A DNA stretch of 64,000 nucleotides from Candidatus Saccharimonadota bacterium (GTDB lineage Bacteria > Patescibacteriota > Saccharimonadia > CAILAD01 > BJGX01). Position numbers and translations under genes: made by a program. This document shows, one piece after another, positions 17,973 to 51,314 of the stretch. The stretch spans positions 721 to 64,720 of the forward strand of contig JACPPH010000005.1 of the NCBI GenBank assembly GCA_016191105.1, in the 5' to 3' direction. The notes below the pieces were generated by a model. It saw only the letters and a program-made list of their open reading frames with translations, made no database searches and was not told the DNA's origin. The first letter of the stretch is position 1; every line of letters begins with the position of its first letter.

Positions 17973-19052
17973 ATGACGCTAAGAATCAGACAGTTTTGTA
18001 GCTTTGGTGGGTTAACAATAATTATGGCTGTCGTCATGTTGGGTGGCTATGCTCATAAGGCTAAGGCTGAAGCGGGTCAGGCTTTGTCGATTTCGCCGCC
18101 ACTAGTAGAAGTAAAGAGTGATCCGGGCAAGCTTGAGAAGGTTTCTATTAAGGTCACCAATCTTTCGAGCGGTGAATTATTAGTTAAAAACCAAGTCAAT
18201 GACTTTGGTGCCAAAAATGAATCGGGCGAGCCCAATATTATATTCGACGACAACCAGAACGAACCTTACAGTTTGCGAAACTGGGTAGAGGCACCGGCGC
18301 CCTTTAAATTGGCCAGCCAACAGTCGCGGGTGGTGGAGTTTAAAATAAATGTACCCACCAACGCTGAGCCAGGCGGGCACTACGCCGTGTTTCGCTTTAC
18401 CGGCCAGGCTCCAGAATTAGAGCAGTCTGGGGTGGCGTTGTCAGCCAGCATTGGTTCGCTCATACTTTTGCGTGTCTCGGGCAATGTTTCTGAGCAGGCC
18501 AATTTGGTAAGTTTTTATAGTGCCAGCCGGCCACAATTTAGCAAGTCAGGTTTTTTTGAGAATGGTCCGATTGGTTTCGTAGAGCGAGTTCAAAATAATG
18601 GTAATATTCATGTCCAACCGACCGGTACAATAACTATCAAAGACATGTTTGGCCGGCAGGTTGCCAGCCTTAGAGTCAACGGCGAGCCGGCCAGCAAACA
18701 GAATCCGCCTCGCAGTGTATTGCCAAAAAGTATTCGTAAATTCGAGCAAATCTACGACAAAAAATGGCTCTTTGGATATTATAGCGCGACTCTAGATCTT
18801 ACTTATGGCTCAACCAATCAAACGCTGCGTGGCACCACTGGTTTTTGGGTAATACCATATAAGTTAGTGTTATTAGCGCTGTTAATTGTTGTGGTACTTG
18901 TGTTGCTGGCTCGCTGGTTACTCAGGCGCTACAAGGCTCATGTTGTAAAACAGATCCAAAAAAGCCAAGAACAAAATAATGGTTCTGACAGGCAAACTAA
19001 AAATCTAAGCGGCCACAAAAAGGTACGCCCCAAAAAGCGATCTAAGCTATAA
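17973..19052 (+). CDS. cell-surface protein with signal peptide and C-terminal TM anchor (DUF916/DUF3324-like architecture)
   Basis: N-terminal signal peptide, beta-rich ectodomain, C-terminal LVLLALLIVVVLVLLARWLL helix followed by a basic tail. Confidence 0.5.
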   Translation: MTLRIRQFCSFGGLTIIMAVVMLGGYAHKAKAEAGQALSISPPLVEVKSDPGKLEKVSIKVTNLSSGELLVKNQVNDFGAKNESGEPNIIFDDNQNEPYSLRNWVEAPAPFKLASQQSRVVEFKINVPTNAEPGGHYAVFRFTGQAPELEQSGVALSASIGSLILLRVSGNVSEQANLVSFYSASRPQFSKSGFFENGPIGFVERVQNNGNIHVQPTGTITIKDMFGRQVASLRVNGEPASKQNPPRSVLPKSIRKFEQIYDKKWLFGYYSATLDLTYGSTNQTLRGTTGFWVIPYKLVLLALLIVVVLVLLARWLLRRYKAHVVKQIQKSQEQNNGSDRQTKNLSGHKKVRPKKRSKL

Positions 19053-19059
19053 TTGCAGC

Positions 19060-20511
19060 GTGAAGAAGTCGTTGCAGCAAAAATTAAAAGAGCTTCCACT
19101 TAAACCAGGTGTCTATTTTTTTTACAACCAGGCTGGGGAAATTATTTACATTGGCAAGGCCTCGATATTAAAACGAAGAGTGGCTAGCTATTTTCAAAAA
19201 CACCACCGCGACTACAAAACCCCGCTATTAGTAGAAAACATTGCCAACACTAGCTGGATAGAGACGGACTCAGAAATTGAAGCCTTGTTTTTAGAGGCTG
19301 AATTTATTAAGCGCTATAAGCCGCTTTACAATGTGCTCGAAAAAGACGACAAAAACTTTATTTATGTACGTATTACCACTAACCAAGACTGGCCAGCTGT
19401 TAGCTTTGTGCGTCGCCCAAGCGATGACAGGGCGAGATATTTTGGGCCCTTTGTGCATGGCTATGCGGTCAAGAAGGCTCTACGGTATTTACGACGGATA
19501 TTCCCTTACTATGTAAAGCCAGAACGCAATATATCATCGAAGCTAGAACACCAGATAGGGGTGGTTCCCAAGCCAGATATGAATAAGACTGAATATCGCA
19601 AACTAGTGAAGCGGTTGATTTACGTACTCGAGGGCAAAACCTCGCAACTGCTTACGCAGCTCGAGCGCGAAATGAAAAAACTGGCTCAAGATAAAAGGTA
19701 TGAACAAGCCGCTGAGGCTCGCAATCAGTACTTGGCACTTAAGGCGCTTAGTACCAAAATAGTTTTTGGCACTCAAGAAAAATTCGATCTCACACTCGAC
19801 CAAGCTCTCAATGGTTTAGCTGATCGGCTAGGCCTAATGGGCGCACCAAGACGTATAGAGTGCTACGACATAAGTAACTTTGCTGGCGGCGATGCAGTTA
19901 GCAGCATGATAGTTTTTACCGACGGCGTGCCCAATCAAAGTGAGTACCGGCATTTTAAGATGCACAGTGTTGGCCCAAACGACTTTGCTATGATGCGCGA
20001 AACTTTGCGACGCCGTTTTTCTGGCCGTCACGATGCTTGGGCTAAGCCAGACTTGGTTGTGATTGATGGTGGCAAGGGGCAGCTTAGTTCGGCTTTGAAT
20101 GCCATGCAAGAGGTTGGCGTGGCGATACCAACGGTTGGTTTGGCCAAACGGCATGAGCAAATAATTCAGTTAGCTTCGAGCGCCACAACAGGCCTGCAGG
20201 CTGGTGAAAGGATAGAAGGCGATTACAAGATTATTGCTCTCAACCATGGATCGGCAACTTTGCAGCTAGTGCAGCGGATTCGCGATGAGGCTCATAGATT
20301 TGCTGTTAGCTATCACACCGCTGTGCGTAACCAGCGCACCAAAACATCGCAACTCGATGCTATCGCGGGCGTTGGCCCAGCTACTCGTAAAAAACTTGTT
20401 AAGCATTTTGGCAGCGTGGCCGGCATAAAGGCAGCCAGTCGGGCCGAACTAAGTGGCGTGGTGGGGCCCAAGCTAGCCAGCACAATTAAGGCCGACTTAG
20501 GCACCGTTTAG
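19060..20511 (+). CDS. uvrC: excinuclease ABC subunit C
   Basis: GIY-YIG N-terminus (PGVYFFYNQAGEIIYIGKA), RNase H-like and C-terminal HhH regions; GTG start. Confidence 0.9.
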   Translation: MKKSLQQKLKELPLKPGVYFFYNQAGEIIYIGKASILKRRVASYFQKHHRDYKTPLLVENIANTSWIETDSEIEALFLEAEFIKRYKPLYNVLEKDDKNFIYVRITTNQDWPAVSFVRRPSDDRARYFGPFVHGYAVKKALRYLRRIFPYYVKPERNISSKLEHQIGVVPKPDMNKTEYRKLVKRLIYVLEGKTSQLLTQLEREMKKLAQDKRYEQAAEARNQYLALKALSTKIVFGTQEKFDLTLDQALNGLADRLGLMGAPRRIECYDISNFAGGDAVSSMIVFTDGVPNQSEYRHFKMHSVGPNDFAMMRETLRRRFSGRHDAWAKPDLVVIDGGKGQLSSALNAMQEVGVAIPTVGLAKRHEQIIQLASSATTGLQAGERIEGDYKIIALNHGSATLQLVQRIRDEAHRFAVSYHTAVRNQRTKTSQLDAIAGVGPATRKKLVKHFGSVAGIKAASRAELSGVVGPKLASTIKADLGTV

Positions 20512-20548
20512 ACTACCATGCAATCTGAAAATATGGTAAAATAGCGAA

Positions 20549-20911
20549 ATGATAAAACGCTTGCTTTTGAGCTGGCTGGTGAATTTTTTGGGTCTCTGGG
20601 CAGCCGCTAGCCTATTGGTTGGCATACAGTATAATCAACAGCTAACGGTGCTCTTGATTGCTAGCTTGATTTTTGGTATTGTCAATGCGCTAGTGCGGCC
20701 AGTGGTGGTTATACTTAGCTTGCCAGCAATAGTAGTTACCATGGGGCTATTTACGCTCGTAGTAAACATGCTAATGCTTTACATTACTAGTGCTCTCTAT
20801 AAGCCATTTCAGGTTAACTCTGTTTGGGCAGCACTCGGTGCTGTGATTATTATCTGGGTCGTAAACTACCTAATGAACGATTTATTAGTTGAAGAAAAAC
20901 AAGAATTATGA
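20549..20911 (+). CDS. DUF360 / phage-holin-family-IV-like 4-TM membrane protein
   Basis: 120 aa, 4 TM helices. Confidence 0.5.
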   Translation: MIKRLLLSWLVNFLGLWAAASLLVGIQYNQQLTVLLIASLIFGIVNALVRPVVVILSLPAIVVTMGLFTLVVNMLMLYITSALYKPFQVNSVWAALGAVIIIWVVNYLMNDLLVEEKQEL

Positions 20912-21126
20912 AAAACATCCTACCCTACATAACAATTATCTCAGCCGTTCTTTTGATCGGTTGTGTTTTGTTACAAAACCAGGGTATGGGACTGGGCTCG
21001 GCTTTTGGCGGCGACAGTAGTTTTTACCGTTCAAAGCGGGGTATTGAGCGGATATTGTTTATAGCTACCATTATTCTAGCTATTATTTTTGTGGGCAGCA
21101 TCATAGGTAGCTTGGTTATTTACTAA
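20908..21126 (+). CDS. secG: preprotein translocase subunit SecG
   Basis: LLQ...GLGSAFGG motif and two TM helices; 72 aa. Confidence 0.7.
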   Translation: MKNILPYITIISAVLLIGCVLLQNQGMGLGSAFGGDSSFYRSKRGIERILFIATIILAIIFVGSIIGSLVIY

Positions 21127-21133
21127 ACAACCA

Positions 21134-22858
21134 ATGTGGAAGTATCTACGGTTTAAATTACGTCGTAAATCTCGCCGCATGTATTATCATCTTCACCTTT
21201 GGCGTATTTGGCTGTTGAACTACTTTAGTCGTCATATCTACGGTGGCTGGCAAAAGCTAGGTTCTATGCGAAGCGTAATGGTGGCTTGGCTGGGGTTAGT
21301 TTTGATTTGTTACTGGGGATTGCTGGTAGGCATTCAAAATCTCGATGCCCGCTATGTTGCCACAGTACCCGCCTATGGAGGTAATTATTCTGAAGGATTG
21401 ACCGGAGAGTTGAGATCTATGAATCCAATTTTTGCCGACAACTCGGCGTCCAAGGACATCTCGGCTTTAATATTTTCGGGCTTAACCAAGATCGACCCGA
21501 GCGGAGGCTATGCTGGTGATCTAGCCAACAATTGGGATGTAAGCCCAGACAAAAAGAGCTATACATTTTATCTTCGATCCAATGCCAAATGGCAAGATGG
21601 CCGTCCGGTAACAGCCGAGGATATAGCCTTTACGGTCTCTGTTATTCAAAACCCTGATACCCGCAGCCCATATAGCGCTGACTGGAAGGGTGTTCAGGCC
21701 GAAGTACTCAATAGCTCAACCGTACGCTTTAACTTGCCAGCCAGCTATAGCGAGTTTTTATACACGACTACGGTAGGGATATTGCCCAAACACATACTGG
21801 CCAATGTTAAACCTTCGTTGCTCAAGCTGCATGAATTCAATCAAAGACCAATCGGCAGCGGTCCGTATCGGTATGTAGGTGGGTCGGCCAATTCGGGAGT
21901 GGTTCGACTACAAGCATTTAGTGAGTTTTATATGGGTCGGCCATACATTCCAACCATGCAAATGTACATATACCCAACCGAGCGCGACCAGATTACGGCC
22001 TATGAGCGCAAAGAAATTATGGGTATTTCTCAAATAGAACCCCCAGACTACCAAACGCTTTCTAAAATTGAAAACCTTAAGCTATATCAGCTCAAGCAGC
22101 CGGCCTATGTGGCGGTGTTTTTCAACCTCAAAAACAGTAAGCTTACCAAGCCTCTTCGTCAAGCTCTAGCCTACGCCACCAATCGCGACACTATAGTAAG
22201 TGGAGTGCTGTACAGTCAGGGGGTGCGATCACAACTGCCATTGCCGGCCGGCTTTAGTGGTTTTACTGCTGACACCACCCGTTATGACTATAGTCAAGAT
22301 TTGGCACGCTCATCGCTAGCTACTGCTAAGGCACAAGACACCACTCTGAATCTTGTAACCCTAAAAGGCTCGGTCTACCAACAGGTAGCCGAATCGTTAA
22401 AAAAACAGTGGCAAGCAATAGGGGTTAATCTAAACATAAATGCAGTTGACGCCACGAGTTTGCAGCAAGACTATGTTCGACCCCGTAATTATGATCTACT
22501 GCTGTATGGCCAAAACCTGGGTGCTGGCTCAGACGAATATAGTTTTTGGCATTCCAGCCAAGTCGACGATCCTGGGTTAAATTTAAGCAGTTACAAGAAT
22601 AGTAATGTCGATCGCGATCTAGAAGCCGGGCGAATTGCCAAGGACCCTGCCTACAAAGCTAGCAAATACACAGATTTTTTAAAGCTCTGGAGTCAAGACG
22701 AGCCAGCCATAATCTTATACAATCCTTATTATGACTACGCGCAGAGTGTCGTGTTGAAGGGCTTTAACACAACCCGCATAATAGAGCCCCAAAACCGGTT
22801 CAACAATGTTTACAAATGGTACATAAATACCCGGCCGGCCCTAAAAGCCAGGCAGTAA
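21134..22858 (+). CDS. ABC transporter substrate-binding protein, family 5 (oligopeptide/nickel type)
   Basis: SBP_bac_5-like length and motifs; the true start is probably the internal Met near 21266 (MRSVMVAWLG...), just before a TM/signal segment. Confidence 0.7.
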   Translation: MWKYLRFKLRRKSRRMYYHLHLWRIWLLNYFSRHIYGGWQKLGSMRSVMVAWLGLVLICYWGLLVGIQNLDARYVATVPAYGGNYSEGLTGELRSMNPIFADNSASKDISALIFSGLTKIDPSGGYAGDLANNWDVSPDKKSYTFYLRSNAKWQDGRPVTAEDIAFTVSVIQNPDTRSPYSADWKGVQAEVLNSSTVRFNLPASYSEFLYTTTVGILPKHILANVKPSLLKLHEFNQRPIGSGPYRYVGGSANSGVVRLQAFSEFYMGRPYIPTMQMYIYPTERDQITAYERKEIMGISQIEPPDYQTLSKIENLKLYQLKQPAYVAVFFNLKNSKLTKPLRQALAYATNRDTIVSGVLYSQGVRSQLPLPAGFSGFTADTTRYDYSQDLARSSLATAKAQDTTLNLVTLKGSVYQQVAESLKKQWQAIGVNLNINAVDATSLQQDYVRPRNYDLLLYGQNLGAGSDEYSFWHSSQVDDPGLNLSSYKNSNVDRDLEAGRIAKDPAYKASKYTDFLKLWSQDEPAIILYNPYYDYAQSVVLKGFNTTRIIEPQNRFNNVYKWYINTRPALKARQ

Positions 22859-23314
22859 TTATTTAGCTTTTTCCCAGTCTTCAACTACACCCAAGGCTAG
22901 TTGTTCAAGCTCTTGGAGATGGACAAGCTCTACTGGCCTCAACGACTGTCTGTTTATTTCGGCTAAATTATGATCACCCTCAAAGTGCTGTTGTGATAAT
23001 TTCTCTCTTGCGCAGGCATATACTACCCTTGGAATATTGGACCACTCAGTTGCTCCATAGCACATTAAACAAGGCTCCATCGATGAATACATAGTGGTAT
23101 CACTCAAGTCTGTTGTCTTAAGTTGGTGACAAGCTTTGCGGATGGCCTCAATTTCTGCGTGGCTGGTAGGGTCATTGAGCTGGTTGCCACTACTTACACC
23201 AGACGCGAGGATTTTGCTTTCTTTAACAACAATGGCGCCGGCGGGGAATCCGCCCCTTTCAACTGACTCCCGCGATAGCTCAATTGCTTTCTCTAAGTAA
23301 GCTCTATCATTCAT
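22859..23314 (-). CDS. nucleoside/tRNA-adenosine deaminase (CDA fold)
   Basis: HAE...PCxMC zinc-binding signature (HAEIEAIRKA...PCLMCYGA). Confidence 0.75.
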   Translation of the reverse strand: MNDRAYLEKAIELSRESVERGGFPAGAIVVKESKILASGVSSGNQLNDPTSHAEIEAIRKACHQLKTTDLSDTTMYSSMEPCLMCYGATEWSNIPRVVYACAREKLSQQHFEGDHNLAEINRQSLRPVELVHLQELEQLALGVVEDWEKAK

Positions 23315-23368
23315 AATTGCAGTGGTGTCTATCTACAACGAGGCTCGAACCTATTTCCAAGAAAAAGC

Positions 23369-24235
23369 CTAAAGTAAGCCCCGCCGTTTGCCAGCCAAAG
23401 GCTGACCCGCCCCGCCAGCCCTGGATTTTGATTGTTTTTGGATTTCCCCCGCCAAATTTCTTTGCGTTGTATTTTCGGGTTCGGTCAACCAGAAGACAAC
23501 CGGATTTTTGCTACCAAAAATGGCTATCTTAGGTTCTGGTTTTGGCTGCGGGATAGAGCGGCTCAAGGTCATAACGGTCTCTGCTTGTACTCGGGCACCA
23601 GTATCGTCCAAGCCTATTTTGAATTTTTGTTTAACTTCATCTAGTTCGTTTCTGTTTAACGCTACGATCTCTGTCATTTTTCTTTCATAATCAATCTGCT
23701 GTGCCGGAACTATTACTTGGTCGTAGTGTTCGGGAGCTGCGTCCTTGAAGCCCGCAGCTAGTCTACTAGCCGCAATAAACAGATTATAGTAACCGCTGCT
23801 TTGCAGGCTTTCGAGCGGTATTTCCGCAAACCACATAAGCGCAGCTCGTCCGTCGTCAAGATTAAGGGGTGCAATCGCTACTTGAACATTGTTGACGTTG
23901 GCGAGAGCTAGGTCTGAAAACGAAACAGCTAGACGTGCAGCACCGGCATAGTCAGTCAGTGTAGACTTCTTTGCTTTTATAGTCTCCCGCCAAACCATCT
24001 TTTTCGTATCAATTGTTGCCGTAACAGTTCGTGTTCCGGGGTCTATATCTATACACATTAGGTCATCAAAGAAACCTGTTTGCAAATTTTCTGCCACAGT
24101 TGGTAGAACAATTTCTTGGTGTTGCACATATGAGTCGGCAGCTTTTGCCGCACCGTTCAACGTAATAATGTCAATCGCCGAAACACCTTTTTCAAAAACA
24201 AGGGCTTGGTCATCAAATTGGCTCTGGTATCGCAT
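23369..24235 (-). CDS. hypothetical protein (cargo gene A; 3' end runs through IR1-left)
   Basis: 288 aa; the last ~25 codons are encoded by the inverted repeat. Confidence 0.5.
   Translation of the reverse strand: MRYQSQFDDQALVFEKGVSAIDIITLNGAAKAADSYVQHQEIVLPTVAENLQTGFFDDLMCIDIDPGTRTVTATIDTKKMVWRETIKAKKSTLTDYAGAARLAVSFSDLALANVNNVQVAIAPLNLDDGRAALMWFAEIPLESLQSSGYYNLFIAASRLAAGFKDAAPEHYDQVIVPAQQIDYERKMTEIVALNRNELDEVKQKFKIGLDDTGARVQAETVMTLSRSIPQPKPEPKIAIFGSKNPVVFWLTEPENTTQRNLAGEIQKQSKSRAGGAGQPLAGKRRGLL
23387..23453. repeat. IR1 left copy (~65 bp, perfect inverted match to 24820-24886)
   Basis: GGCTGACCCGCCCCGCCAGCCCTGGATTTTGATTGTTTTTGGATTTCCCCCGCCAAATTTC; its reverse complement is present at 24820-24886. 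Confidence 0.9.
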
Positions 24236-24297
24236 TTTTATTACTCCTTGCGTATAATTATAACTGAAATTGTTAGCAAAAACTTGAAAGGGAAACT

Positions 24298-24747
24298 ATG
24301 CAAGACGACAATCAGCAACCACGAGACGACCAGCAATACCACAACCCAGTAGACGGCCAAACTTACGTAACGAACGGCACATGGCAGACACACAACCCTG
24401 CAAGCCCTGCGCCCGAACCAACAGGACCAGTGAAGCTGGAGGGCGTCCGTCTCTTGGCCGATGAACAGACAGTTGCGGCTAGTGTTTCCACTGAAGCCCT
24501 CAGCCAGTACATTAAAAGTATCTCTGGAGTTGTTGAAGCAGTCGCAAAAGACTCGCCTACGGCATTCGAGCTTCTTATTCAGTTTGAGCTGGCAACCGAT
24601 AAGCCAGTGTCTGTACAAATCAGTAATCAGGGTGAAGTATCTCAAGAGTTATTACAAAAAATCTACGAAGCACTAGGCACATTACAAGCACCTGCTGTTT
24701 CTGGAAATCCAGTACCATTCCAGGTGCACTACAAGATTAACCCCTAG
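24298..24747 (+). CDS. hypothetical protein (cargo gene B), Gln/Asp-rich N-terminus
   Basis: 149 aa, divergent from gene A, with a 62-bp AT-rich shared promoter region between them. Confidence 0.45.
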   Translation: MQDDNQQPRDDQQYHNPVDGQTYVTNGTWQTHNPASPAPEPTGPVKLEGVRLLADEQTVAASVSTEALSQYIKSISGVVEAVAKDSPTAFELLIQFELATDKPVSVQISNQGEVSQELLQKIYEALGTLQAPAVSGNPVPFQVHYKINP

Positions 24748-24819
24748 CACCGACCACCACGCCGTTTCTGCCGTTTTCGGCAGCCGACCCGACAGACCTG
24801 GATTTTCTCAACTGAAAAA

Positions 24820-24886
24820 AAGAAATTTGGCGGGGGAAATCCAAAAACAATCAAAATCCAGGGCTGGCGGGGCGGGTCAGCCTTTT
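24820..24886. repeat. IR1 right copy
   Basis: Reverse complement of 23387-23453. Confidence 0.9.
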
Positions 24887-25001
24887 TCGGAATTGCCGCT
24901 CATTCGGGCGGTATTTTCTTTGGCTTTGCGGAGCAAAAGCCATATGTTCTTGGGGGGAAACGTATTTGGGGCAGCCGTTGGATGCGCCTTTTTGGTTTTT
25001 A
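24883..25001. repeat. IR2 left copy (~120 bp; 2 mismatches to the inverted copy at 26547-26667)
   Basis: Immediately abuts IR1-right; lies upstream of the recombinase start. Confidence 0.9.
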
Positions 25002-25151
25002 GCCGCCATTGGCGGTTTTTGGTATAATTGCAAGTGGAACCAATTCAGTAGTTGTCTTTTTCGTTTGTCGGCTTTAATAGCCGTCTCGGACAATTTAAGG
25101 CAACTTGAATTGGTTCCACCGAGGCGGCTATTTAAGTTGAGAGGGGGTGCT

Positions 25152-26714
25152 ATGAACGAAAAATATTATTTATACGCCAGAAAATCTACTGACGTAGAGG
25201 ACAAACAAGTTTTGTCTATTGAGGCGCAACTCGTTGAGTTGCGAGAATACGCCAAGCGAGAGAGTTTGCATATTGCCGCCGAGTTTGTGGAGAAAAAGTC
25301 CGCCAAGACAACGGGCAGACCCATATTCGGCAAGTTGTTAGCTGAAATAGAGCAAAATGGCGGCAATATTCTGGCGTGGCACCCAGATAGACTGGCTAGA
25401 AATAGTGTGGACGGTGGACAGATTGTCTATTTACTAGACAGCGGACAACTCGGCACACTCAAGTTCCCCTCTTTTTGGTTTGAGAATACTTCTCAAGGCA
25501 AGTTTATGTTGTCCATAGCGTTTGGACAGTCAAAGTATTATGTAGACAATCTGTCCGAAAACACCAAAAGAGGTTTGCGCCAAAAGGTGCGGCGGGGCGA
25601 ACGCCCCGGCCTTGCACCTGTCGGTTACATCAACGATGTACGCACAAAAACAGTTGTCGTAGACAAACGGCGTTCGCCTATTGTCATTGAGGCTTTTGGG
25701 TTGTACGCAAAAGGCAATCAACGGCTTGAGGATATTGCGAGCTTTCTTGCTAGTAAAGGAATACTAACCAAATCTGGCAAGCAATTCCCCAAAGACAAAA
25801 TTAAGCGTATGCTGACAAATCCGTTTTACTACGGACATTTCCGCTATTTTGGCGAGATACACGAGGGCAAACATACAGCCATAATTTCCAAGAAACTGTT
25901 TGACGAGGTGCAAGCTACGCTTGCCAAGCGTGGACGACCACAAAAAGGCGCAACTGCTCCACAGATTTTCTGTGGCTTGCTGCGTTGTGCAACCTGCAAT
26001 CTAGCCATAACTGCCGAAAAGAAAGTAAAACATCAAAAGAACGGCAATATTCACGAATACGTGTACTACCGTTGCACAAGAAAGCACAAAACAATCCGTT
26101 GCACCGAGCCAGCAGTAACCGAACCAGAACTAGCAACACAGCTCACAGACATTTTGCATAGCTACGCTATACCCAAAAGTTGGGCAGAACAACTAGAAAC
26201 AATGCTTGCTGCTGATGAAAAGAAAGCTAACCAATCCTCTGGAGTGTTTGTGGCTAACGCACAAACACGACTTGCGAGCTTGCAGGGCAAGCTCCAGCGA
26301 CTTTTAGACGGCTATTTAGACCAAGATATAGAGCAGAGTGTCTATCGGGCTAAACAAGCTGAGCTAATGTCCGAGAAAAAGTCGCTAGAGGAACAAGTCA
26401 GCAAGTTCACGCTTGCTAGTAATAGTTGGGTTGAACCTATGCGCCAGTGGCTCAAACAAGCGTATGACCTCAATGGAATTGCAGAGAGTGGCGAGCATAG
26501 TGCGATAAAGTCCGCTTTTCTTGAGATGGACGGATTGAAACTGTTTCTAAAAACCAAAAAGGCGCAGCCAACGGCTGCCCCAAATACGTTTCCCCCCAAG
26601 AACATATGGCTTCTGCTCCGCAAAGCCAAAGAAAATACCGCCCGAATGAGCGGCAATTCCGAAAAAAGTTTTCTAATGGTGCCGCGGAGAGGACTCGAAC
26701 CTCCACGAGCGTAA
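25152..26714 (+). CDS. large serine recombinase (resolvase catalytic domain, zinc ribbon, coiled coil)
   Basis: YLYARKSTDVEDKQ...SIEAQ catalytic-Ser region; CGLLRCATCN...YYRCT zinc ribbon. GAGGGGG RBS before the ATG at 25152. The last 12 codons (..MVPRRGLEPPRA*) read antisense through the tRNA-Leu T-arm. Confidence 0.9.
   Translation: MNEKYYLYARKSTDVEDKQVLSIEAQLVELREYAKRESLHIAAEFVEKKSAKTTGRPIFGKLLAEIEQNGGNILAWHPDRLARNSVDGGQIVYLLDSGQLGTLKFPSFWFENTSQGKFMLSIAFGQSKYYVDNLSENTKRGLRQKVRRGERPGLAPVGYINDVRTKTVVVDKRRSPIVIEAFGLYAKGNQRLEDIASFLASKGILTKSGKQFPKDKIKRMLTNPFYYGHFRYFGEIHEGKHTAIISKKLFDEVQATLAKRGRPQKGATAPQIFCGLLRCATCNLAITAEKKVKHQKNGNIHEYVYYRCTRKHKTIRCTEPAVTEPELATQLTDILHSYAIPKSWAEQLETMLAADEKKANQSSGVFVANAQTRLASLQGKLQRLLDGYLDQDIEQSVYRAKQAELMSEKKSLEEQVSKFTLASNSWVEPMRQWLKQAYDLNGIAESGEHSAIKSAFLEMDGLKLFLKTKKAQPTAAPNTFPPKNIWLLLRKAKENTARMSGNSEKSFLMVPRRGLEPPRA
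26547..26667. repeat. IR2 right copy (inside the recombinase 3' coding region)
   Basis: Reverse complement of 24883-25001 with 2 mismatches. Confidence 0.9.
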
Positions 26715-26763
26715 TGCTCACTAGAACCTGAATCTAGCGTGTCTACCAATTCCACCACCGCGG
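26678..26763 (-). tRNA. tRNA-Leu (anticodon CAG)
   Basis: Hand-folded cloverleaf: GCCGCGG acceptor, CTAGA-TTCAGGT-TCTAG anticodon arm, long variable arm, GGTTCGAGT T-loop, CCA encoded. Confidence 0.8.
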
Positions 26764-26806
26764 CGTGGTTTAACTTGAGTATTTTACTATAGACGGGTCA
26801 ATATGG

Positions 26807-29479: not shown

Positions 29480-29584
29480 CTAAATATAGTAAAATGTAGC
29501 GGTTAGGCCGCGGTGGTGGAAGTTCGCAAAACACGCAAGCTGTCGAGCAGAAGCGAGCAAGTTATATTAGGCTAGACTAGCCCC

Positions 29585-29686
29585 TCAACTAGTTTGGGGA
29601 GCTGATCAACTTAAAGATTAATAGGCCGCGGTGGCTCAACTAGTTTGGGGAGCTGATCAACTTAAAGATTAATAGGCCGCGGTGGT
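29585..29686 (+). repeat. tandem 51-bp direct repeat x2, each ending in the tRNA-Leu 5' acceptor sequence; a third partial copy lies at 29500-29512
   Basis: Unit CTCAACTAGTTTGGGGAGCTGATCAACTTAAAGATTAATAGGCCGCGGTGG occurs at 29585-29635 and 29636-29686; the second copy runs into the real tRNA start. Confidence 0.8.
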
Positions 29687-29765
29687 GGAATTGGTAGACA
29701 CGCTAGCTTGAGGGGCTAGTGCCCACTTTTCGGGCGTGGAAGTTCGAGTCTTCTCCGCGGCACCA
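29676..29765 (+). tRNA. tRNA-Leu (anticodon GAG)
   Basis: Near-identical arms to the Leu(CAG) gene; anticodon loop CTTGAGG; CCA encoded. Confidence 0.8.
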
Positions 29766-30993: not shown

Positions 30994-31044
30994 AACTTAA
31001 TTCTATCAAAAAAGAGCCAATAGGCTCTAATGTTGGAATAATTT

Positions 31045-31542
31045 ATGGTGGCCCTTTTCCAACGGCTTTCGAATCCGCGCGGCGCGTTGGCGAATTCCCC
31101 TGAGGCATCCGATGAAATCGGCGCTGATGCGACACCTGAACCGTCTGGCACAACGACCGATCGGACTGTCCAGAAGCAAGTTCGACTCTCGTCTGAGCAA
31201 GTTGACGACCTCGTGGCCGCGTATCAGGCCGGGTGCTCAGTCCGTGACTGCGCACGGGACTTTGGCGTCCACCGGACAACTGTCATGAGTCATCTCGAGC
31301 GTCGCGGCGTTGAGCGGCGGGCACAGGGCCGCAAACTTGACGACGAAGCGGTAGCCCATGCCCGCTCGTTGTTCGCCGCTGGCCAGTCGGCTGCCTCGAT
31401 CGCTCGCGAGTACGAGGTAGATGCGGAGACAGTTCGCCGAGCGCTGCACAACGACTATCTAACGTCGTCGCTGCCGAGCACACAGCAACCTCGTCTGACG
31501 TCAGTGGAACAACGGCCGATCAACGCGGAGTGCCGGAGATGA
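31045..31542 (+). CDS. tandem helix-turn-helix DNA-binding protein (resolvase-HTH / sigma-70 region-4-like)
   Basis: Two repeats of an HTH module (…AGCSVRDCARDFGVHRTTVMSHL… and …AGQSAASIAREYEVDAETVRRAL…). Confidence 0.5.
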   Translation: MVALFQRLSNPRGALANSPEASDEIGADATPEPSGTTTDRTVQKQVRLSSEQVDDLVAAYQAGCSVRDCARDFGVHRTTVMSHLERRGVERRAQGRKLDDEAVAHARSLFAAGQSAASIAREYEVDAETVRRALHNDYLTSSLPSTQQPRLTSVEQRPINAECRR

Positions 31543-32272
31543 CGACATACCCATAGTCCTTCTCAGGCGCGGTCACGAGGTCGGCATTCTGCTCAGACCA
31601 TCGGCCGGTAGTGATGTCGTTCTCAAGTCGTTGCATTGCGGTCGCGAGGTCACGGTCACCGATGCGCGCGAAGGCCGAGATGTTCCGGCGTACCCGGGGA
31701 TTGAGATACTGCTGAGGGCGTCGCCAGAATGCTTCGTATATACCGTCCTCAAAGTCCCACGGAAGTGGGAACGGACGCACCGAACCATCATTCAGATACT
31801 CGGTTATCTCTCCGATAGCAGGAAAGTTCGACCAGTCCTCGTCAAGCAGTTGAGGAAGGTACTGTCGTTCAAGCCAAAAGTCGTACTCGCAATCAGGATC
31901 TTGGGTGATGATCACCACCCTCGAAACACCAACGCGACAGACTTCGTCCAAGCCCAGTCGCCAGTCCTTCCAATGATGCAATGTGTGAACCGCGAGCACT
32001 CCACTCACGGACTTTGATCGTAGTGGGAGGTCTTCAGCAACGGCTCGCACTGAGATACCGCCCCCTCGCTGCGAAAGCATCGTTCTCGATGGGTCAAGAC
32101 CGATGACGAACTTGTCCGGCGGCTCGTACGAACCGCTACCGCATCCGACGTTTACAACCGAGTCGGTTCCACCTAGAAGTCGATCCACGATTTCGCGTAG
32201 ACGAGGATCAGTCCTTCTCGTCTCTGCGTATCCCGCGTCGAAGGCATTCGCCCCCAAGCCTGGAACAGTCAT
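31520..32272 (-). CDS. class I SAM-dependent methyltransferase
   Basis: VVNVGCGSG motif I and downstream acidic post-I residues. Confidence 0.7.
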   Translation of the reverse strand: MTVPGLGANAFDAGYAETRRTDPRLREIVDRLLGGTDSVVNVGCGSGSYEPPDKFVIGLDPSRTMLSQRGGGISVRAVAEDLPLRSKSVSGVLAVHTLHHWKDWRLGLDEVCRVGVSRVVIITQDPDCEYDFWLERQYLPQLLDEDWSNFPAIGEITEYLNDGSVRPFPLPWDFEDGIYEAFWRRPQQYLNPRVRRNISAFARIGDRDLATAMQRLENDITTGRWSEQNADLVTAPEKDYGYVVISGTPR

Positions 32273-33348
32273 TGCTTTTGCAGTTCCGGGTGTTGACGAA
32301 GAAGGCGAACTGGATCAGAGCTCGCCACGAACCACAGGCGAAAGAATCGCCGAATGTAGGCGTCATACTCAACTGCGGGCTCAGATGGCATCCGAAACAT
32401 GAACAGGTACACCCGGAAGTACACGTCACGCAAGATCAATGCTGCCTCCGCTCGTTGCAACTCTCGCATCGTCGTAGACCTCTCGCTCAATGGCACGAGG
32501 CCAAACAATCCGGCATCCGCCAAGGCCAATTCGGATGGCACTGTCAGTGCTTCCAGTCCATCCGCCTCTGGCAATACGTAACCGTCGAGGTGAAGACATT
32601 CGTGGCCGGTCTTTCTCGCGAAATCCGAGAACAGACGCCACCGACTAATCGATCGACTGCCGGAACCGGTGATCTCAAAAGACAGCCACTCGACACCATC
32701 AAGCTTCGCAATGATCAATTCGAGTTTGGCGACAAGATGACGAGATATTTCACCTTGTCCGATGCCTGCCACATTCTGGGCCCCGAAGAATCCGACATAG
32801 AGCTGACGACTCTTGCGCAATGCGATCGCCTTGACGAATCCCACCACCTCGTTGCCTGACTTTGCGACTACGAGGAGATGAATTGGATCCTCAGCATCGG
32901 CCATCCATAGCTTGTGCATGGCCCTCATGGTCTTGGGCGAGTATCGCTTGTCGCCGAGCCACACGGCCAGCTTGTCCGGCGATACTCGATCGCAGTCCTC
33001 GATGAGGTCAATGTATTGATGCACGAAGCGGTCTACCGTCGCCGGCCGTCGTGGGTTCAGTACACACCGCACGTGGCGCTTGTACTTGTCGTACATCAGG
33101 TAGGCGAAGAACCCGCCAATCGTCGCGCCCACGATCGCCACCGTCCATGCACCAATTGGGCTCGCTGTTCCATTTGGGTCAGAAGGCGTCTGCGAGGGCT
33201 TCGGTTCGGTGCCCGTCGACACGGCTGAAGACGGCGGATCTTCGCTAGCTATTGCAGTGACTGGTGTTGCCACGCCAAGAGAAACGACGAAAGCACATGC
33301 GCCGAGTACGCAGAGACAAAGGGATCGGACGAGGTCTCGGCAACCCAT
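32269..33348 (-). CDS. hypothetical lipoprotein/membrane protein (start assumed at MGCRDL; the tracked ORF extends to 33414)
   Basis: LCLCVLGAC lipobox-like signal, Pro/Ser-rich linker, TM helix; C-terminal domain unassigned. Confidence 0.4.
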   Translation of the reverse strand: MGCRDLVRSLCLCVLGACAFVVSLGVATPVTAIASEDPPSSAVSTGTEPKPSQTPSDPNGTASPIGAWTVAIVGATIGGFFAYLMYDKYKRHVRCVLNPRRPATVDRFVHQYIDLIEDCDRVSPDKLAVWLGDKRYSPKTMRAMHKLWMADAEDPIHLLVVAKSGNEVVGFVKAIALRKSRQLYVGFFGAQNVAGIGQGEISRHLVAKLELIIAKLDGVEWLSFEITGSGSRSISRWRLFSDFARKTGHECLHLDGYVLPEADGLEALTVPSELALADAGLFGLVPLSERSTTMRELQRAEAALILRDVYFRVYLFMFRMPSEPAVEYDAYIRRFFRLWFVASSDPVRLLRQHPELQKQ

Positions 33349-34480: not shown

Positions 34481-35095
34481 CTAGCCGATAAGGCCGCTAA
34501 GCCAGGTTTCCACCGATGTTCCCAGCGAAGGAAGGTGGTAACCGCCTTCCTGAACTACCACCGTTGGGATACCCAAGGCCCCAACTCGAGTGGCGGCGCC
34601 CTCATATCCACCAAGCGTAAGCAGAAAATCGCCAAGTTGATCGTCAACATAGGTATCGAGCCCAAGAGACAGCACCAAGTATGCGGGCTCGAATCGTGCG
34701 ATTTCGTCGCATGCTGCCTTCAGACATTCAAGGTAAGCGGGGTCAGACGTGCCGGTTGGTAGCGGAAAGTTCCTGTTAGCACCAATGCCATCCGATTTAC
34801 CCAGCTCCGTGGCCCGACCAGAGAAATAGGGATAAGCATGGTCTGGATCTCCGTGGATTGAGACATACAACACGTCTCCACGCGTATAGAACAGGTCCTG
34901 TGTTCCATTTCCATGATGGAAGTCCACATCCAAAATTGCTACCCGCTGTCCGCCTTCGCAGAGGAACTCCGCCGCCGCCGCGGCATTGTTGAAATAGCAG
35001 TAGCCGCCGAAACTTGCTCTACCTGCATGGTGGCCGGGTGGACGGCAGAGTGCGTATGCAGATCGATCGCCCAAGACCATGAGGGCCATGCACAA
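34481..35095 (-). pseudogene. histone-deacetylase/acetoin-utilisation (AcuC)-family protein, N-terminally truncated
   Basis: CRPPGHHA...ILDVDFHHGNGTQD core is present, but ~100 residues normally preceding it are missing. The upstream sequence is a duplicated fragment of another gene. Confidence 0.55.
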
Positions 35096-35163
35096 GCTAT
35101 GGATGGCCGATGCTGAGGATCCAATTCATCTCCTCGTAGTCGCAAAGTCAGGCAACGAGGTGG
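35086..35163. repeat. ~78-bp inverted duplicate of 32858-32937 (fragment of the 32269..33348 gene) abutting the tRNA-Val(TAC) 3' end
   Basis: Exact reverse-complement match: ...ATGGCCGATGCTGAGGATCCAATTCATCTCCTCGTAGTCGCAAAGTCAGGCAACGAGGTGGTGGG... Confidence 0.85.
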
Positions 35164-35237
35164 TGGGCGATGTAGGACTCGAACCTACGACCTCCTCGGT
35201 GTAAACGAGATGCTCTAGCCAACTGAGCTAATCGCCC
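35161..35237 (-). tRNA. tRNA-Val (anticodon TAC)
   Basis: GGGCGAT acceptor, anticodon loop TTTACAC, GGTTCGAGT T-loop, CCA encoded. Confidence 0.8.
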
Positions 35238-35948: not shown

Positions 35949-37565
<1,617 letters not shown>

Positions 37566-37736
37566 AAAATTTGAAAACTTAAATGGCCGCCCCGGTGCAC
37601 TCAATCCAAGTTGCCCTGAACTGACCCGAGACGGCCATTAAAAAAGACAACTTGTCCGATTGAGAGCAAACTCATTATAGCAAAAATTCTTTTTGTTGGG
37701 CAAATCAAATCCGAGACAGAATTAAATCGCACAAGA

Positions 37737-37865
37737 GCAAACCTCGTTTTGGCCAACCGCGAGGCGCGCCTGCGCGCGCCGAGCGGAGAGGATTTACCTC
37801 CACAAAATCAATGGGCGGCACTTTGTGCCGCCCACGATCTGGCTCTCAAAAAGCCGAAAAGTTTT
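37737..37865. repeat. ~129-bp perfect inverted repeat, right copy (upstream of the recombinase 2 start)
   Basis: Reverse complement of 36022-36150. Confidence 0.9.
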
Positions 37866-38293
37866 GTCTTGGTGTATTTATACAACCGCGCTCGAACCTA
37901 TTTTAGCAAAAATCTCTAACCGAAACCAATCGCTCCGCCCCGCCGCCAGCCGCCGCAAAGCGGCGGCCTGCCTCGCAGAAAAACCTTCTTTACAATTTTG
38001 ACTTTGCGCGCGCCACTAAAAAATTCTTCTAAAAAGGAAAAGAAAGTTTTTCTGCTCGGCTCCGCGCTCAATCGCGCGGGGCGGCGGGGCTTCGCTTCGG
38101 CTCGGGCGGGGCGGAATTCCCCCCCCACACCCCCCATCCGCCACGCCCTCGCTTCCGGCGGCTATTTTTTCGACGGGCTTGTCTTTTCCTTGTCCCACCT
38201 CCCAGCGCGGAAAAGATTGAGGAGCTCCCTATGAATAGAATACTTGTTGTCCTTTTTCTTTTTGTCTGCTATCATTTGAATGTAGGTTCAAAT

Positions 38294-50493: not shown

Positions 50494-51314
50494 TGCCAGA
50501 CAAACCTATCCCAAGACCACCAAGCGATGAAGAAATGGGCCGAGCTGACCTGCGTATTGATCAGTCAAACCGCCAGGCTGTGGTGTTGGCTCGTATAGCA
50601 GAACTACAAAAATATGGTTTTAGCCAAGAGTTTGTAAACGATTTTAGAGCCGAAACACTGGTTGGAGCTAATGTTTCTGTAGGGGAGCGGCTTGATAGCC
50701 TAACTAGCCAAGGCTTCCACAGCCCCGTCAGCTTGATTGAAAAACAGCCCAACATACTCAAATATGCTCCAGAATCTATCCAAGGCAAACTTGATAGCCT
50801 AACTAGCCAAGGCTTCCACAGCCCCGTCAGCTTGATTGAAAAACAGCCCAGCATACTTGGTTTGGCTCCGGGAAACATTCAAAAACGAGTTGTTCTATTT
50901 TCTAAGTTAGTAGGCTTATTCAACTCACCAATTAACCCGGTTAAGCTTATGGAACAAGAAGCTGGGCTATTTTCAACAAAGATCGACAAGTTGTTAGTGT
51001 TAACCCGAATAGCTCGTAATTCCACAGCCGACGCCAGCCAGGTAGATCGCAAGCTGATCCATGATATTATGTTTGCAAACCTAGAAGATGTGTTGCTTGG
51101 TCTGGAAGATTTGGGTGAAGAGCAGCAAAACGCCAACCCCAACTATACTATTCAGCAATTACTGGCCAGGGCTAAAGAAATTAAAAAGCAAAGTCTGGGT
51201 AAAAACACCAAACGAGCCAGGATAGAGCGGGCTGCAGAGCTCGATCCAAAGGTGAAGGCTCGATACTTTAAAGGCTATCCATTAAAATCTGCTTTGGAGC
51301 AAAAGGATGAGTAA
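50493..51314 (+). CDS. hypothetical protein with an internal 99-bp tandem duplication
   Basis: A perfect 61-bp direct repeat at 50691-50751 and 50790-50850 encodes a duplicated LDSLTSQGFHSPVSLIEKQP module. Confidence 0.45.
   Translation: MPDKPIPRPPSDEEMGRADLRIDQSNRQAVVLARIAELQKYGFSQEFVNDFRAETLVGANVSVGERLDSLTSQGFHSPVSLIEKQPNILKYAPESIQGKLDSLTSQGFHSPVSLIEKQPSILGLAPGNIQKRVVLFSKLVGLFNSPINPVKLMEQEAGLFSTKIDKLLVLTRIARNSTADASQVDRKLIHDIMFANLEDVLLGLEDLGEEQQNANPNYTIQQLLARAKEIKKQSLGKNTKRARIERAAELDPKVKARYFKGYPLKSALEQKDE

Follow-up and report, generated by a model that had tools for sequence, protein, structure and literature searches.

The two divergent genes enclosed by the perfect inverted repeat IR1 are likely to form the damaged cargo bay of an integrative element that targets tRNA genes by means of a large serine recombinase (LSR), and that belongs to a family widespread in Patescibacteria. 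The comparison of related sequences on which this reading is built started from the window, by which we mean the whole stretch of DNA that was analysed (64,000 nucleotides of contig JACPPH010000005.1). The features of the locus, with positions as in the window, are the following:

22859-23314, minus strand: deaminase gene, its start codon 8 nt from the left core
23323-26681: whole predicted integrative element, 3.35 kb, encoding the LSR
23323-23327: left junction core TGGTG (reverse complement CACCA), the distal, attR-type end and true left end
23328-23463, minus strand: IR1-left, outer 136 nt of the left P arm, with T-loop look-alike GGTTCGAG
23369-24235, minus strand: 288-aa ORF, 3′-truncated serpin-fold gene
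23463/23464: deletion scar 1, 153 nt gone
24236-24297: divergent intergenic region of 62 nt, presumed site of both promoters
24298-24747, plus strand: 149-aa partner gene
24743-24885, plus strand: IR1-right, inner 143 nt of the right P arm, beginning at the stop codon of the 149-aa gene
24883-24885: deletion scar 2, 87 nt gone, TTT microhomology
24883-25002, plus strand: IR2-left, internal copy of the P′ arm, with hairpins and inward-reading terminator-like sites
25152-26714, plus strand: LSR gene, 520 aa, Pfam Resolvase, Recombinase and Zn_ribbon_recom
26547-26676, minus strand: IR2-right, P′ arm adjoining the tRNA, three hairpins
26677-26681: core shared with the tRNA, the 3′-terminal CACCA of tRNA-Leu(CAG), TGGTG on the plus strand
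26677-26764, minus strand: tRNA-Leu(CAG), the integration target
Predicted empty site (element-free junction): ...CCGCGGCACCA followed directly by CTGCAATTATGAATG

Sequence comparison placed the right end of the element exactly at the 3′-terminal N73-CCA of the tRNA gene, which was the sole match in an Rfam scan of the locus. At the left end the reverse complement of 23323-23351 consists of GGTTCGAGCCTCGTTGTAGATAGA followed by CACCA, and is identical to the P arm plus core of the related locus L012. A model with the crossover core at the TTT of 24883-24885 and attB 10 nt downstream of the tRNA was dropped; it is ruled out by 41 related loci, which put the core at the tRNA CCA, and by the canonical P arm at 23323-23351. 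The Logan contig covering the right flank ends inside the tRNA, short of IR2, because of a 30-nt repeat in common with the other tRNA-Leu.

IR1 is perfect over 67 nt (23397-23463 and 24819-24885). In an 8-kb stretch it is far beyond chance: IR2 excepted, the other pairs are imperfect and measure 14-25 nt. The earlier note had recognised a perfect repeat at 23387-23453 and 24820-24886; the repeat exists, its length is 67 nt rather than the 65 bp claimed, and the left arm had been placed 10 nt off. IR1 is evidently the remnant of a repeat of ~217 nt, and within the left P arm a partner in the window survives for 23397-23463 only. IR2 pairs 24883-25002 with 26547-26666 (120 nt, 2 mismatches). IR1-right is contiguous with IR2-left, as had been stated, the TTT at 24883-24885 being common to both. 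The first hairpin of IR2-right, followed by a T-run, lies directly past the tRNA CCA.

One layout is common to at least 70 related loci in Saccharibacteria and other Patescibacteria: flank, core, IR1, cargo, IR1′, core, IR2, LSR, IR2′, and a core that is the 3′ end of a tRNA gene. We retrieved 79 genome loci, with IR2 detected in 69 and both repeat pairs in 40; all observed copies were integrated at tRNA genes. The tRNA junction is canonical in 55 loci, which use 24 tRNA species for 15 amino acids as targets, and IR2-right overlaps the tRNA by 3-6 nt in 49 of these 55. The three junctions of an element have the core alone in common (3-10 nt, mostly of the NCACCA type; 41 loci). The centre reads P-core-P′, the outer junctions tRNA-core-P′ and P-core-flank. 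Between cargo and LSR of intact members there is a complete attP, inverted relative to the copy split by integration, and it is the retention of this second attP inside the element that generates two abutting inverted-repeat pairs with nothing but the core in common. The inverted repeats of the family measure 100-290 nt and the elements 3-7 kb. Often there are several copies per genome, and two elements may be stacked in tandem at one tRNA. The same 64-kb window contains a second family member at tRNA-Val(CAC), and a bracketed unit without LSR adjoins tRNA-Val(TAC). A literature search retrieved no description of this nested-repeat architecture, which is apparently undescribed; for the retained inverted attP we know of no natural serine-integrase counterpart.

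The P arms imitate a tRNA. The T-loop-like pattern GTTCNA starts 22-23 nt before the core in the P arms of 37 of the 47 loci with the pattern, and 18-19 nt before the core in 44 of 53 tRNAs, that is, the distance to the core is 4 nt greater for the look-alike in attP than for the T-loop of the tRNA itself. The flank-side (B′) half-sites are unrelated between loci, which is unusual for LSR attB sites. The P′ arms are conserved, carry no T-loop-like motif and form a series of covarying hairpins, of which two resemble terminators: 87.6% of the cells were paired, as against 35-50% with the partners slid, 11 pairs had compensatory changes, and 0 of 500 shuffles was as good. The LSR ORF stays open across IR2-right and core and extends into the tRNA, on its antisense strand, as it does in nearly all loci. 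We considered that the P′ arm might be conserved as code for the LSR tail, and dropped the idea since the substitutions per codon position (205/223/200) showed no periodicity and the covarying hairpins fit better; the ratio of synonymous to non-synonymous changes was equal in all three frames. The arms of one pair are 97-100% identical within an element and 62-96% identical between related elements, a pattern indicating that the arms undergo concerted evolution.

The LSR matched the catalytic domain PF00239 (E 1.6e-21, residues 6-150), with the YARKST motif near the N-terminus, the C-terminal domains PF07508 (2.3e-17) and PF13408 (1.5e-07), and the integrase family PHROG 95 (E 5.6e-75). It has more than 7800 homologues; an exact look-up of the window protein found it not on record. 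Viral contigs scanned with the LSR contained no relatives, thus at that sensitivity there is no sign of phage origin.

The cargo is hypervariable: 114 ORFs from 38 loci fell into 100 clusters. Cargo orientation across the loci was 16:14 with 8 mixed, a ratio to be read with the caveat that in metagenome-assembled genomes it may be arbitrary where the repeat exceeds the read length. The inversion proposed in the earlier note finds support at the level of the family, in which bracketed cargo occurs in either orientation and is flipped between related elements. The notion of a two-gene cargo on an integrative element was likewise borne out, the cargo being physically coupled with the recombinase unit. 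As to the suggested defence or toxin context, most cargo genes of the family are metabolic or accessory, and they are not specifically defence or toxin genes. None of the cargo was recognisable as a recombination directionality factor.

An unlikely alternative is that two independent transposon-like elements abut, a non-autonomous one carrying the cargo between IR1 and an autonomous one carrying the recombinase between IR2. Each unit does have its own long terminal inverted repeats, with the core alone in common, the cargo is replaced at a far higher rate than the LSR, L022 and L025 contain chains of 3-4 repeat-bracketed units, and the unit at tRNA-Val(TAC) in the window is bracketed without an LSR. 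However, the cores flanking each unit are inverted, and direct orientation is found at the two outermost sites only, so a serine recombinase could only invert a single unit, not excise it. Moreover, the pairing of P with P′ arms at the centre is invariant in ~40 loci, and the chain in L025 resolves into two complete two-unit elements in tandem.

It is very improbable that the locus is an integrated relative of the yeast 2-micron plasmid, in which site-bearing inverted repeats split the circle and flipping amplifies copy number. The 2-micron plasmid encodes the tyrosine recombinase Flp and replicates autonomously. The excised circle, as inferred, would consist of repeats of ~300-350 bp separating an LSR half from a cargo half, and in the inverted repeats of the 2-micron plasmid and of plastids, as in the window family, two unique regions are held apart, the copies are kept identical and the repeat boundaries reach coding sequences. 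Against this analogy, the window family is chromosomally integrated, every copy seen lying at a tRNA gene, and there is no evident replication module, initiator or origin: no replication initiator was found in the window element, and 2 of 97 cargo proteins of the family matched Replic_Relax. The orientation of the LSR unit across the family is essentially fixed (55:1), which argues against free flip-flop.

The window copy differs from intact ones by two deletions. The first, at 23463/23464, removed 153 nt: 76 nt of inner IR1-left and 77 nt holding the native C-terminus and stop codon of the serpin-fold gene. L006 and L092 (sample SRR12113392) are 100% identical to the window on both sides of 23463/23464 and retain the missing 153 nt; the Logan contig L092 follows the window with 100% identity up to 23463 and continues with 76 nt absent from it. 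As deletion 1 lacks microhomology, it is not a k-mer assembly shortcut. Of the 87 nt missing at the second deletion, 69 belonged to the outer part of the P arm and 10 to the beginning of the P′ arm; with these went the core CACCA and 3 nt more. The internal attP copy was left without crossover core. When a centre is rebuilt from the two outer arms, it is colinear with that of L012, which is intact. L092 crosses core and P arm without the branch expected from an internal attP copy. Jointly, the deletions shortened IR1 from ~217 to 67 nt, eliminated the internal core and truncated the serpin-fold gene. In principle both may be confined to the assembly from which the window comes; IR1 was present, and longer, in an independent assembly of the identical strain. 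The window copy may still excise via its intact outer sites, the internal site presumably being no longer usable, and its serpin-fold gene is probably inactive.

The 288-aa ORF, the 149-aa ORF and the 62-nt divergent gap were confirmed, and both ORFs proved to be genuine, conserved genes, the pair being kept in other genomes and in the same divergent order in L001, L005 and L006-L010. The pair is not always near a recombinase, as distant homologues stand in ordinary chromosomal contexts, with neither repeat nor recombinase. The gap contains one weak sigma-70-like match. In the 149-aa protein a disordered N-terminus rich in Q, N and P precedes an alpha/beta domain of ~100 aa.

No motif had been recognised in the 288-aa protein, which has a serpin fold. 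It shares the fold with serpins without a link at the level of sequence: Pfam, PADLOC and PHROG searches of both cargo proteins yielded nothing useful, the 288-aa protein had no Pfam match at E≤1, thus none to the serpin signature PF00079, PDB sequences searched with a family profile contained no match at E≤10, and distant members of the 90-cluster family were not connected to serpins by Pfam either. The length is about 280 aa, compared with 350-400 aa in serpins, the hinge-like stretch of the 288-aa protein has bulky residues, unlike that of serpins, and the window copy is without the C-terminal strands of serpins.

Residues 1-257 of the 288-aa ORF are native; the final 31 are encoded by the P arm. 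The overlap of gene end and repeat claimed in the earlier note is thus real: of the 31 codons, 22 are in IR1-left and 9 in the outer part of the same arm. The repeat-encoded codons replace the conserved last 24 codons of the gene. The window copy lacks the native C-terminal tail, PFAVVATTSEAWLDP..., which is conserved in 19/19 homologues; missing after the reactive-centre-loop region is the segment PFAV..ATTSEAWLDP, present in all 19. In intact copies the repeat starts at or past the stop codons of both cargo genes. A native tail in all homologues and a repeat beyond the stop codons of intact copies identify the overlap as the scar of the 153-nt deletion.

These results bear on a further alternative, the C-terminal swap proposed earlier, in which a phase-variable segment inverts and re-joins the 288-aa gene to another 3′ end in the manner of a shufflon or a Min/Pin-type switch. 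A perfect inverted repeat does bracket the segment, the ORF does enter the left arm, related elements carry inverted cargo, and inversion would change the end of the ORF from ...GAGQP-LAGKRRGLL to ...GAGQP-FSELPLIRAV... However, both alternative tails are unconserved repeat- or flank-encoded sequence, set against the tail that all homologues share and the window gene lost by deletion. The recombinase, an LSR of 520 aa, is not a small invertase (about 190 aa) or an Rci, the internal crossover core is deleted in the window copy, and the presumed promoters lie within the segment, which speaks against an invertible switch. Finally, in the independent dataset of the identical strain left arm and gene are intact, so there is no shufflon-like swap, and we give this reading even less credence than the plasmid analogy.

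Least probable of all is that assembly or amplification created the nested repeats, for instance through a chimeric inverted junction in a metagenome-assembled genome. In its favour, metagenome assembly is the source of the window and of most related loci, many contigs are broken within the repeats, and the Logan contigs of the identical strain lack the deletions of the window. Against it, the same architecture recurs in ~70 loci that come from different projects and assemblers, among them a genome deposited as complete (L018, CP064994.1). The 3-10 nt shared by the junctions are too few for k-mer joins, the arms show covariation between elements, and at the ends of independent Logan contigs there are exact terminal inverted repeats of 30 nt, which fits a real repeat at k=31.

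For the tRNA-targeting LSR element, the following course of events is suggested. At the tRNA end, recombination of attP with attB by the LSR would integrate a circular form of the element; we infer its activity, and the position of the crossover in the core, from junction identities only. The enzyme may read the T-loop sequence with its zinc-ribbon domain, and this would account for a target range of at least 24 tRNA species. Behind the tRNA, the P′ arm would restore a terminator, and it would shield the LSR gene against transcription from outside. Identity of the arms may be maintained through gene conversion or through recombination of one arm with the other, a process that could also flip the cargo or let it be exchanged. 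Conservative recombination by the LSR is not sufficient to account for arm identity; were RecA-driven flipping the cause, the LSR unit should flip too, yet its orientation is fixed. Models of the repeats based on single-stranded DNA folding, hairpins or dumbbells were set aside by reasoning alone, since serine recombinases need duplex sites and an integrated hairpin stem would break the chromosome.

A more speculative proposal, possible but in our view rather doubtful, is that the internal inverted attP is a functional design feature and that the elements represent natural recombinase-mediated cassette exchange, a general cassette system. The LSR would then read the universal T-loop DNA sequence with the discriminator-CCA as crossover core, which would allow docking behind almost any tRNA gene, and would flip bracketed cargo, or swap it between elements, without a directionality factor. 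Patescibacteria lack conjugative elements; if the proposal is true, they gain a general gene-cassette system, analogous in role to integrons, here with a serine recombinase and double-stranded sites.

The LSR is the same three-domain enzyme as phiC31, Bxb1, A118/LI integrase, TnpX of Tn4451 and TndX of Tn5397, and, as in serine integrases, only a few bp at the crossover are identical between the sites. The motif of the LI integrase zinc-ribbon domain is shifted 5 bp between attP and attB (PMC3783163); in LI integrase as in the window family the attP motif lies further out than that of attB, by 5 bp and 4 nt, respectively. Unlike serine integrases, the window family targets the 3′-terminal NCCA of many tRNA genes with an attP that mimics the T-loop, keeps a complete second attP, inverted, in the integrated element, has a flank-side attB half that is not conserved, and carries cargo in which a directionality factor was not identified.

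Tycheposons and Islander-type islands are likewise small and tRNA-adjoining, with hypervariable cargo and tandem stacking (Hackl et al., bioRxiv 10.1101/2020.12.28.424599). Tycheposons, like the window family, reside in streamlined genomes without conjugative elements; they have tyrosine integrases in 910 of 937 cases, replication modules and a size of 10-20 kb (Hackl et al., bioRxiv 10.1101/2020.12.28.424599), compared with 3-7 kb, an LSR only and 3-10 nt shared with the tRNA in the window family, and the nested inverted-repeat architecture of the latter is not described for them. The direct repeat of a tRNA 3′ fragment that marks islands of the Islander / tycheposon type is absent, the distal end consisting of the core and a diverged T-loop look-alike.

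The man-made MiMIC cassette lies between two inverted phiC31 attP sites, is replaceable in either orientation, and uses these two attP sites against two attB sites on the donor (PMC4417149). The cassette of the window family is similarly placed between two inverted LSR sites, with exchange only a candidate function here, and differs from MiMIC in having an intact attP on one side and a hybrid (attR-type) site on the other.

The attP that mimics a T-loop, with a target class apparently set by a core of 3-10 nt, amounts to relaxed but rule-based targeting, and is of interest for integrase engineering. Patescibacteria (Candidate Phyla Radiation) have tiny genomes in which few mobile elements are recognised. 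One recognisable element type in many of their lineages would explain part of the strain-level variation in gene content. For annotation, what counts is that the repeats break short-read assemblies and lead to recombinase ORFs running into tRNA genes. The window locus itself teaches a negative lesson: the overlap of C-terminus and repeat is damage, not regulation.

A large serine recombinase (LSR) gene and a pair of cargo genes make up a 3.35-kb element in the window, at the CCA end of a tRNA-Leu(CAG) gene. One inverted repeat (IR1) surrounds the cargo and a second (IR2) the LSR gene:

23397-23463 and 24819-24885: IR1 remnant, perfect 67-nt inverted repeat
23369-24235, minus strand: 288-aa serpin-fold ORF, inside IR1, diverging from the 149-aa ORF
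24298-24747, plus strand: 149-aa ORF, inside IR1
24883-25002 and 26547-26666: IR2, 120 nt with 2 mismatches, bracketing the LSR gene and contiguous with IR1-right
26677-26764, minus strand: tRNA-Leu(CAG), adjoining IR2-right

The earlier note had reported a perfect 65-bp repeat around the cargo. The repeat exists and is perfect, but its length is 67 nt, and its left and right arms had been placed 10 nt and 1 nt off, respectively. The two divergent ORFs inside the repeat with a 62-nt gap between them, and the direct contiguity of IR1-right with the recombinase's IR2-left, were described correctly. The window LSR (520 aa) matches Resolvase, Recombinase and Zn_ribbon_recom in Pfam and an integrase in PHROG. 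Base composition over the locus is not unusual.

A scan with the window LSR, using one genome per species, yielded 79 loci in Saccharibacteria and many other Patescibacteria (44-94% LSR identity); the LSR family has >7800 members at E<1e-60. Self-comparison of the loci revealed IR2 in 69 (typically 115-139 nt) and IR1 (86-286 nt) together with IR2 in 40. The order of the parts is invariable: IR1-left, cargo (0.7-5 kb), IR1-right, IR2-left, LSR, IR2-right, tRNA, and the IR1 and IR2 pairs overlap by 3-10 nt. IR2-right lies directly at the tRNA 3′ end in 55 loci, with an overlap of 3-6 nt in 49 of them; 24 tRNA species for 15 amino acids serve as integration targets. The LSR unit is flipped at a single locus (L029, 5634-7488), where a plus-strand tRNA-Arg(CCT), TACCA and an IR2 arm (P′) lie upstream of the LSR start and the contig ends in the other arm. 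Because one of the genomes (L018) was deposited as complete and the loci stem from several assemblers, the repeats are not an assembly artefact.

The centre of every locus reads P arm-core-P′ arm, where P and P′ denote the arms of IR1 and IR2 and the core is a short crossover sequence. The tRNA-side junction reads tRNA 3′ end-core-P′ arm, the distal one P arm-core-unrelated flank. The core comprises the last acceptor-stem base(s), the discriminator and CCA (CACCA, TACCA, AGCCA etc.). This pattern is what would be expected if attP (P-core-P′) had recombined with attB (tRNA end-core-flank). The unusual feature is an intact inverted copy of attP that stays within the element and whose arms each form an inverted repeat with one of the outer junctions. 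The P arm has a T-loop look-alike (AAATAGGTTCGAGC...), in which GTTCNA begins 22-23 nt before the core, versus 18-19 nt in tRNAs. This constant 4-nt offset fits the rule for the LI serine integrase, whose zinc-ribbon-domain motif occupies positions 16-24 in attP and 11-19 in attB (PMC3783163). [quoted passage not shown] One tRNA-Leu(CAG) in L025 (3636-10952) carries a head-to-tail stack of two complete elements; their LSRs are 79% and, in the second, 53% identical to that of the window, and the inter-element junction is a hybrid with the P arm of one and the P′ arm of the other.

Compared with these loci, the window element (23323-26681) is a decayed member of the family. A canonical P arm with core, identical to that of the intact locus L012, lies at 23323-23351, 8 nt from a deaminase start codon, and a canonical P′ arm reaches the CACCA of tRNA-Leu at 26677-26681. 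A centre rebuilt by joining both outer arms aligns colinearly with the intact centre of L012. The window centre is 87 nt shorter, having lost the outer 69 nt of the P arm, all of the core, 10 nt from the start of P′ and another 3 nt, with TTT microhomology at the scar. Of the roughly 217 nt of IR1, the 67 nt common to both arms remain, and the internal core is lost; no damage is apparent in the LSR gene or at either outer junction. The shared TTT (24883-24885) was also considered as the crossover and rejected, as the family rule puts the cores at the P arm end in 23323-23351 and at the tRNA CACCA.

All homologues of the 288-aa protein share a conserved C-terminal segment, PFAV-VATTSEAWLDP...; the window copy ends instead in QRNLAGEIQKQSKSRAGGAGQPLAGKRRGLL, coded by the repeat arm. 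Two Logan contigs of SRR12113392, from a strain identical to that of the window, cover the site. L006 is 100% identical to window 23464-24772 and continues with 77 nt absent from the window, which code the native C-terminus and stop of the gene. L092 is 100% identical to 18859-23463 and continues with 76 nt of the inner repeat arm, likewise missing from the window; the two contigs overlap by 30 nt. Because they carry the missing 77 and 76 nt, the window sequence has a 153-nt deletion between 23463 and 23464, and the joint has no microhomology, hence it is not a k-mer shortcut. The lost segment holds near-invariant residues and two predicted strands, so the serpin-fold copy in the window is probably non-functional. 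The phase-variable C-terminal swap proposed earlier is thus wrong: the tail is the result of the deletion, and homologues keep the conserved C-terminus.

Absence of the repeat from independent assemblies had been named as refuting evidence; it is present, and longer, in Logan contigs. The gene pair occurs at 86-100% identity in four such contigs from four samples; the ends of each are formed by an exact terminal inverted repeat of 30 nt (k-1 for k=31), starting at the stop codons of both genes. In contig L009 the arm is covered for 75 nt, with an inverted match to window 24743-24810. L092 (1-225) links the deaminase flank, the core and the entire P arm in one unbroken path, though an internal attP copy should branch the assembly graph. 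The protein collection has no Logan-derived LSR of ≥90% identity. Either pruning removed a short connector from the graph, or the SRR12113392 population is without the LSR unit.

Arms within one element are 97-100% identical (perfect in 22 of 40 IR1 and 33 of 69 IR2 pairs), against only 62-96% when the same arms are compared between related elements, a case of concerted evolution. IR1 inner boundaries lie 0-100 nt from the cargo ORF ends. At L091, where the pair lies outside any element, the stretch directly downstream of the 149-aa gene shows homology to the inner repeat end. The repeat thus seems to have extended into sequence beside the cargo, in the way that gene conversion moves the boundaries of plastid repeats.

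The LSR ORF is open through the entire P′ arm in nearly all loci. Substitutions in this arm had no codon periodicity (205/223/200), and the synonymous ratio was equal in all three frames. Its hairpins covary: 87.6% of cells are paired, versus 35-50% with partners slid, compensatory changes occur in 11 pairs, and the observed score was reached by 0 of 500 shuffles. Hairpin 1 and a T-run directly follow the tRNA CCA, and the arm has a further terminator-like hairpin at its inner end. From this we infer that the P′ arm may act as terminator for the tRNA and as insulator of the LSR gene on both sides. Because the ORF stays open into the tRNA antisense strand, public LSR records (515-560 aa) carry 10-90 C-terminal residues of tRNA antisense; the mirrored arm also yields spurious ORFs (window 26342-26758, minus; 24827-25027, plus).

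Relative to the LSR, cargo is oriented plus in 16 loci, minus in 14 and mixed in 8, and in two related pairs (L021/L023 and L044/L050) a shared cargo gene is inverted with the LSR colinear, orientation calls to be read with the caveat that in metagenome-assembled genomes the assembler may orient repeat-bounded loops arbitrarily. Arm homogenisation cannot come from conservative recombination, and under general recombination flips of the LSR unit should be as frequent as those of the cargo, contrary to the observed ratios (55:1 vs 16:14). Three options rank highest for why every member retains the inverted attP: LSR-driven cassette inversion or exchange, with the internal attP and the distal hybrid site as partners, which would give MiMIC-type cassette exchange (PMC4417149) a counterpart in nature; an LSR that prefers the attP copy overlapping its own 3′ end; and selection for symmetric insulators.

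A full-text literature search found no description of this nested-repeat architecture, and the value of the earlier finding is as a pointer to an unusual element family. Of the closest concepts, serine-integrase elements share its enzyme and site logic; tycheposons are likewise tRNA-docked cargo shuttles, but mostly use tyrosine integrases. The others are engineered inverted-attP cassette exchange and the 2-micron or plastid inverted repeats.

The 114 cargo ORFs of 38 loci fall into 100 clusters. Pfam matches include lactate/malate dehydrogenase, SAM methyltransferases, NUDIX, HTH regulators, ADH, GDSL lipases, HD, APH, glyoxalase and others; only a few ORFs match defence models. The 288-aa protein belongs to a rare family without Pfam domain or assigned name: a word-indexed search of 5.8 billion proteins gave 19 clusters, and an exhaustive profile search of 1.84 billion gave 90 cluster representatives. 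Its conserved divergent partner, the 149-aa gene, is 44-48% identical in L001 and L005 and 83-91% in closer relatives. Both genes are real and their divergent pairing is kept in relatives, yet the pair is not always near a recombinase: distant copies lie in ordinary chromosomal contexts with neither repeat nor recombinase around them. The intact homologue P0001 was modelled by AlphaFold2 from 19 homologues with pLDDT 91.6; no link to serpins was found at the sequence level. The partner model (pLDDT 73.7) has a disordered N-terminus and a generic alpha/beta domain. A 404-aa serpin-fold variant (P0005) has an additional ~120-aa C-terminal domain, and P0144, 36% identical to the partner, starts with a lipoprotein-like signal (…LLCGC), a hint that in some lineages the pair may work outside the cytoplasm. 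Fic-domain genes adjoin chromosomal serpin-fold homologues on two unrelated contigs (L004 5530-5913, L005 3825-4574).

The window holds a second family element in mirror orientation (35949-38060, cargo to about 41900) and a further inverted repeat:

35949-36025, plus strand: tRNA-Val(CAC) of the second element
36021-36155 and 37740-37874: its IR2 arms, 135 nt, perfect; the latter is followed by core TTGGTG and a P arm with GGTTCGAGCGCGGTTGTATAAATACACCA
36150-37544, minus strand: LSR2, 59% identical to the first LSR
32840-32940 and 35067-35167: perfect 101-nt inverted repeat beside tRNA-Val(TAC) (35161-35237)

The cargo side of the second element encodes an ArsR-type regulator, a pyridine-nucleotide disulphide oxidoreductase, a methyltransferase and a HAD hydrolase; a search up to 44000 gave no IR1 partner. 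The right arm of the 101-nt repeat overlaps the tRNA-Val(TAC) 3′ end by 7 nt (CCCACCA). Inside the repeat lie a 147-aa ORF, a short-chain dehydrogenase and a histone-deacetylase-like gene truncated at its N-terminus, and no recombinase; the left end of the repeat has no T-loop-like motif. Nearby, 31000-32000 has 59-63% GC versus about 46% elsewhere. A perfect 51-nt tandem duplication (29584-29685) comprises the upstream region and first 10 nt of tRNA-Leu(GAG) (29676-29765), and a 68-nt direct repeat, 98.5% identical, lies at 50691-50758 and 50790-50857, the copies starting 99 nt apart.
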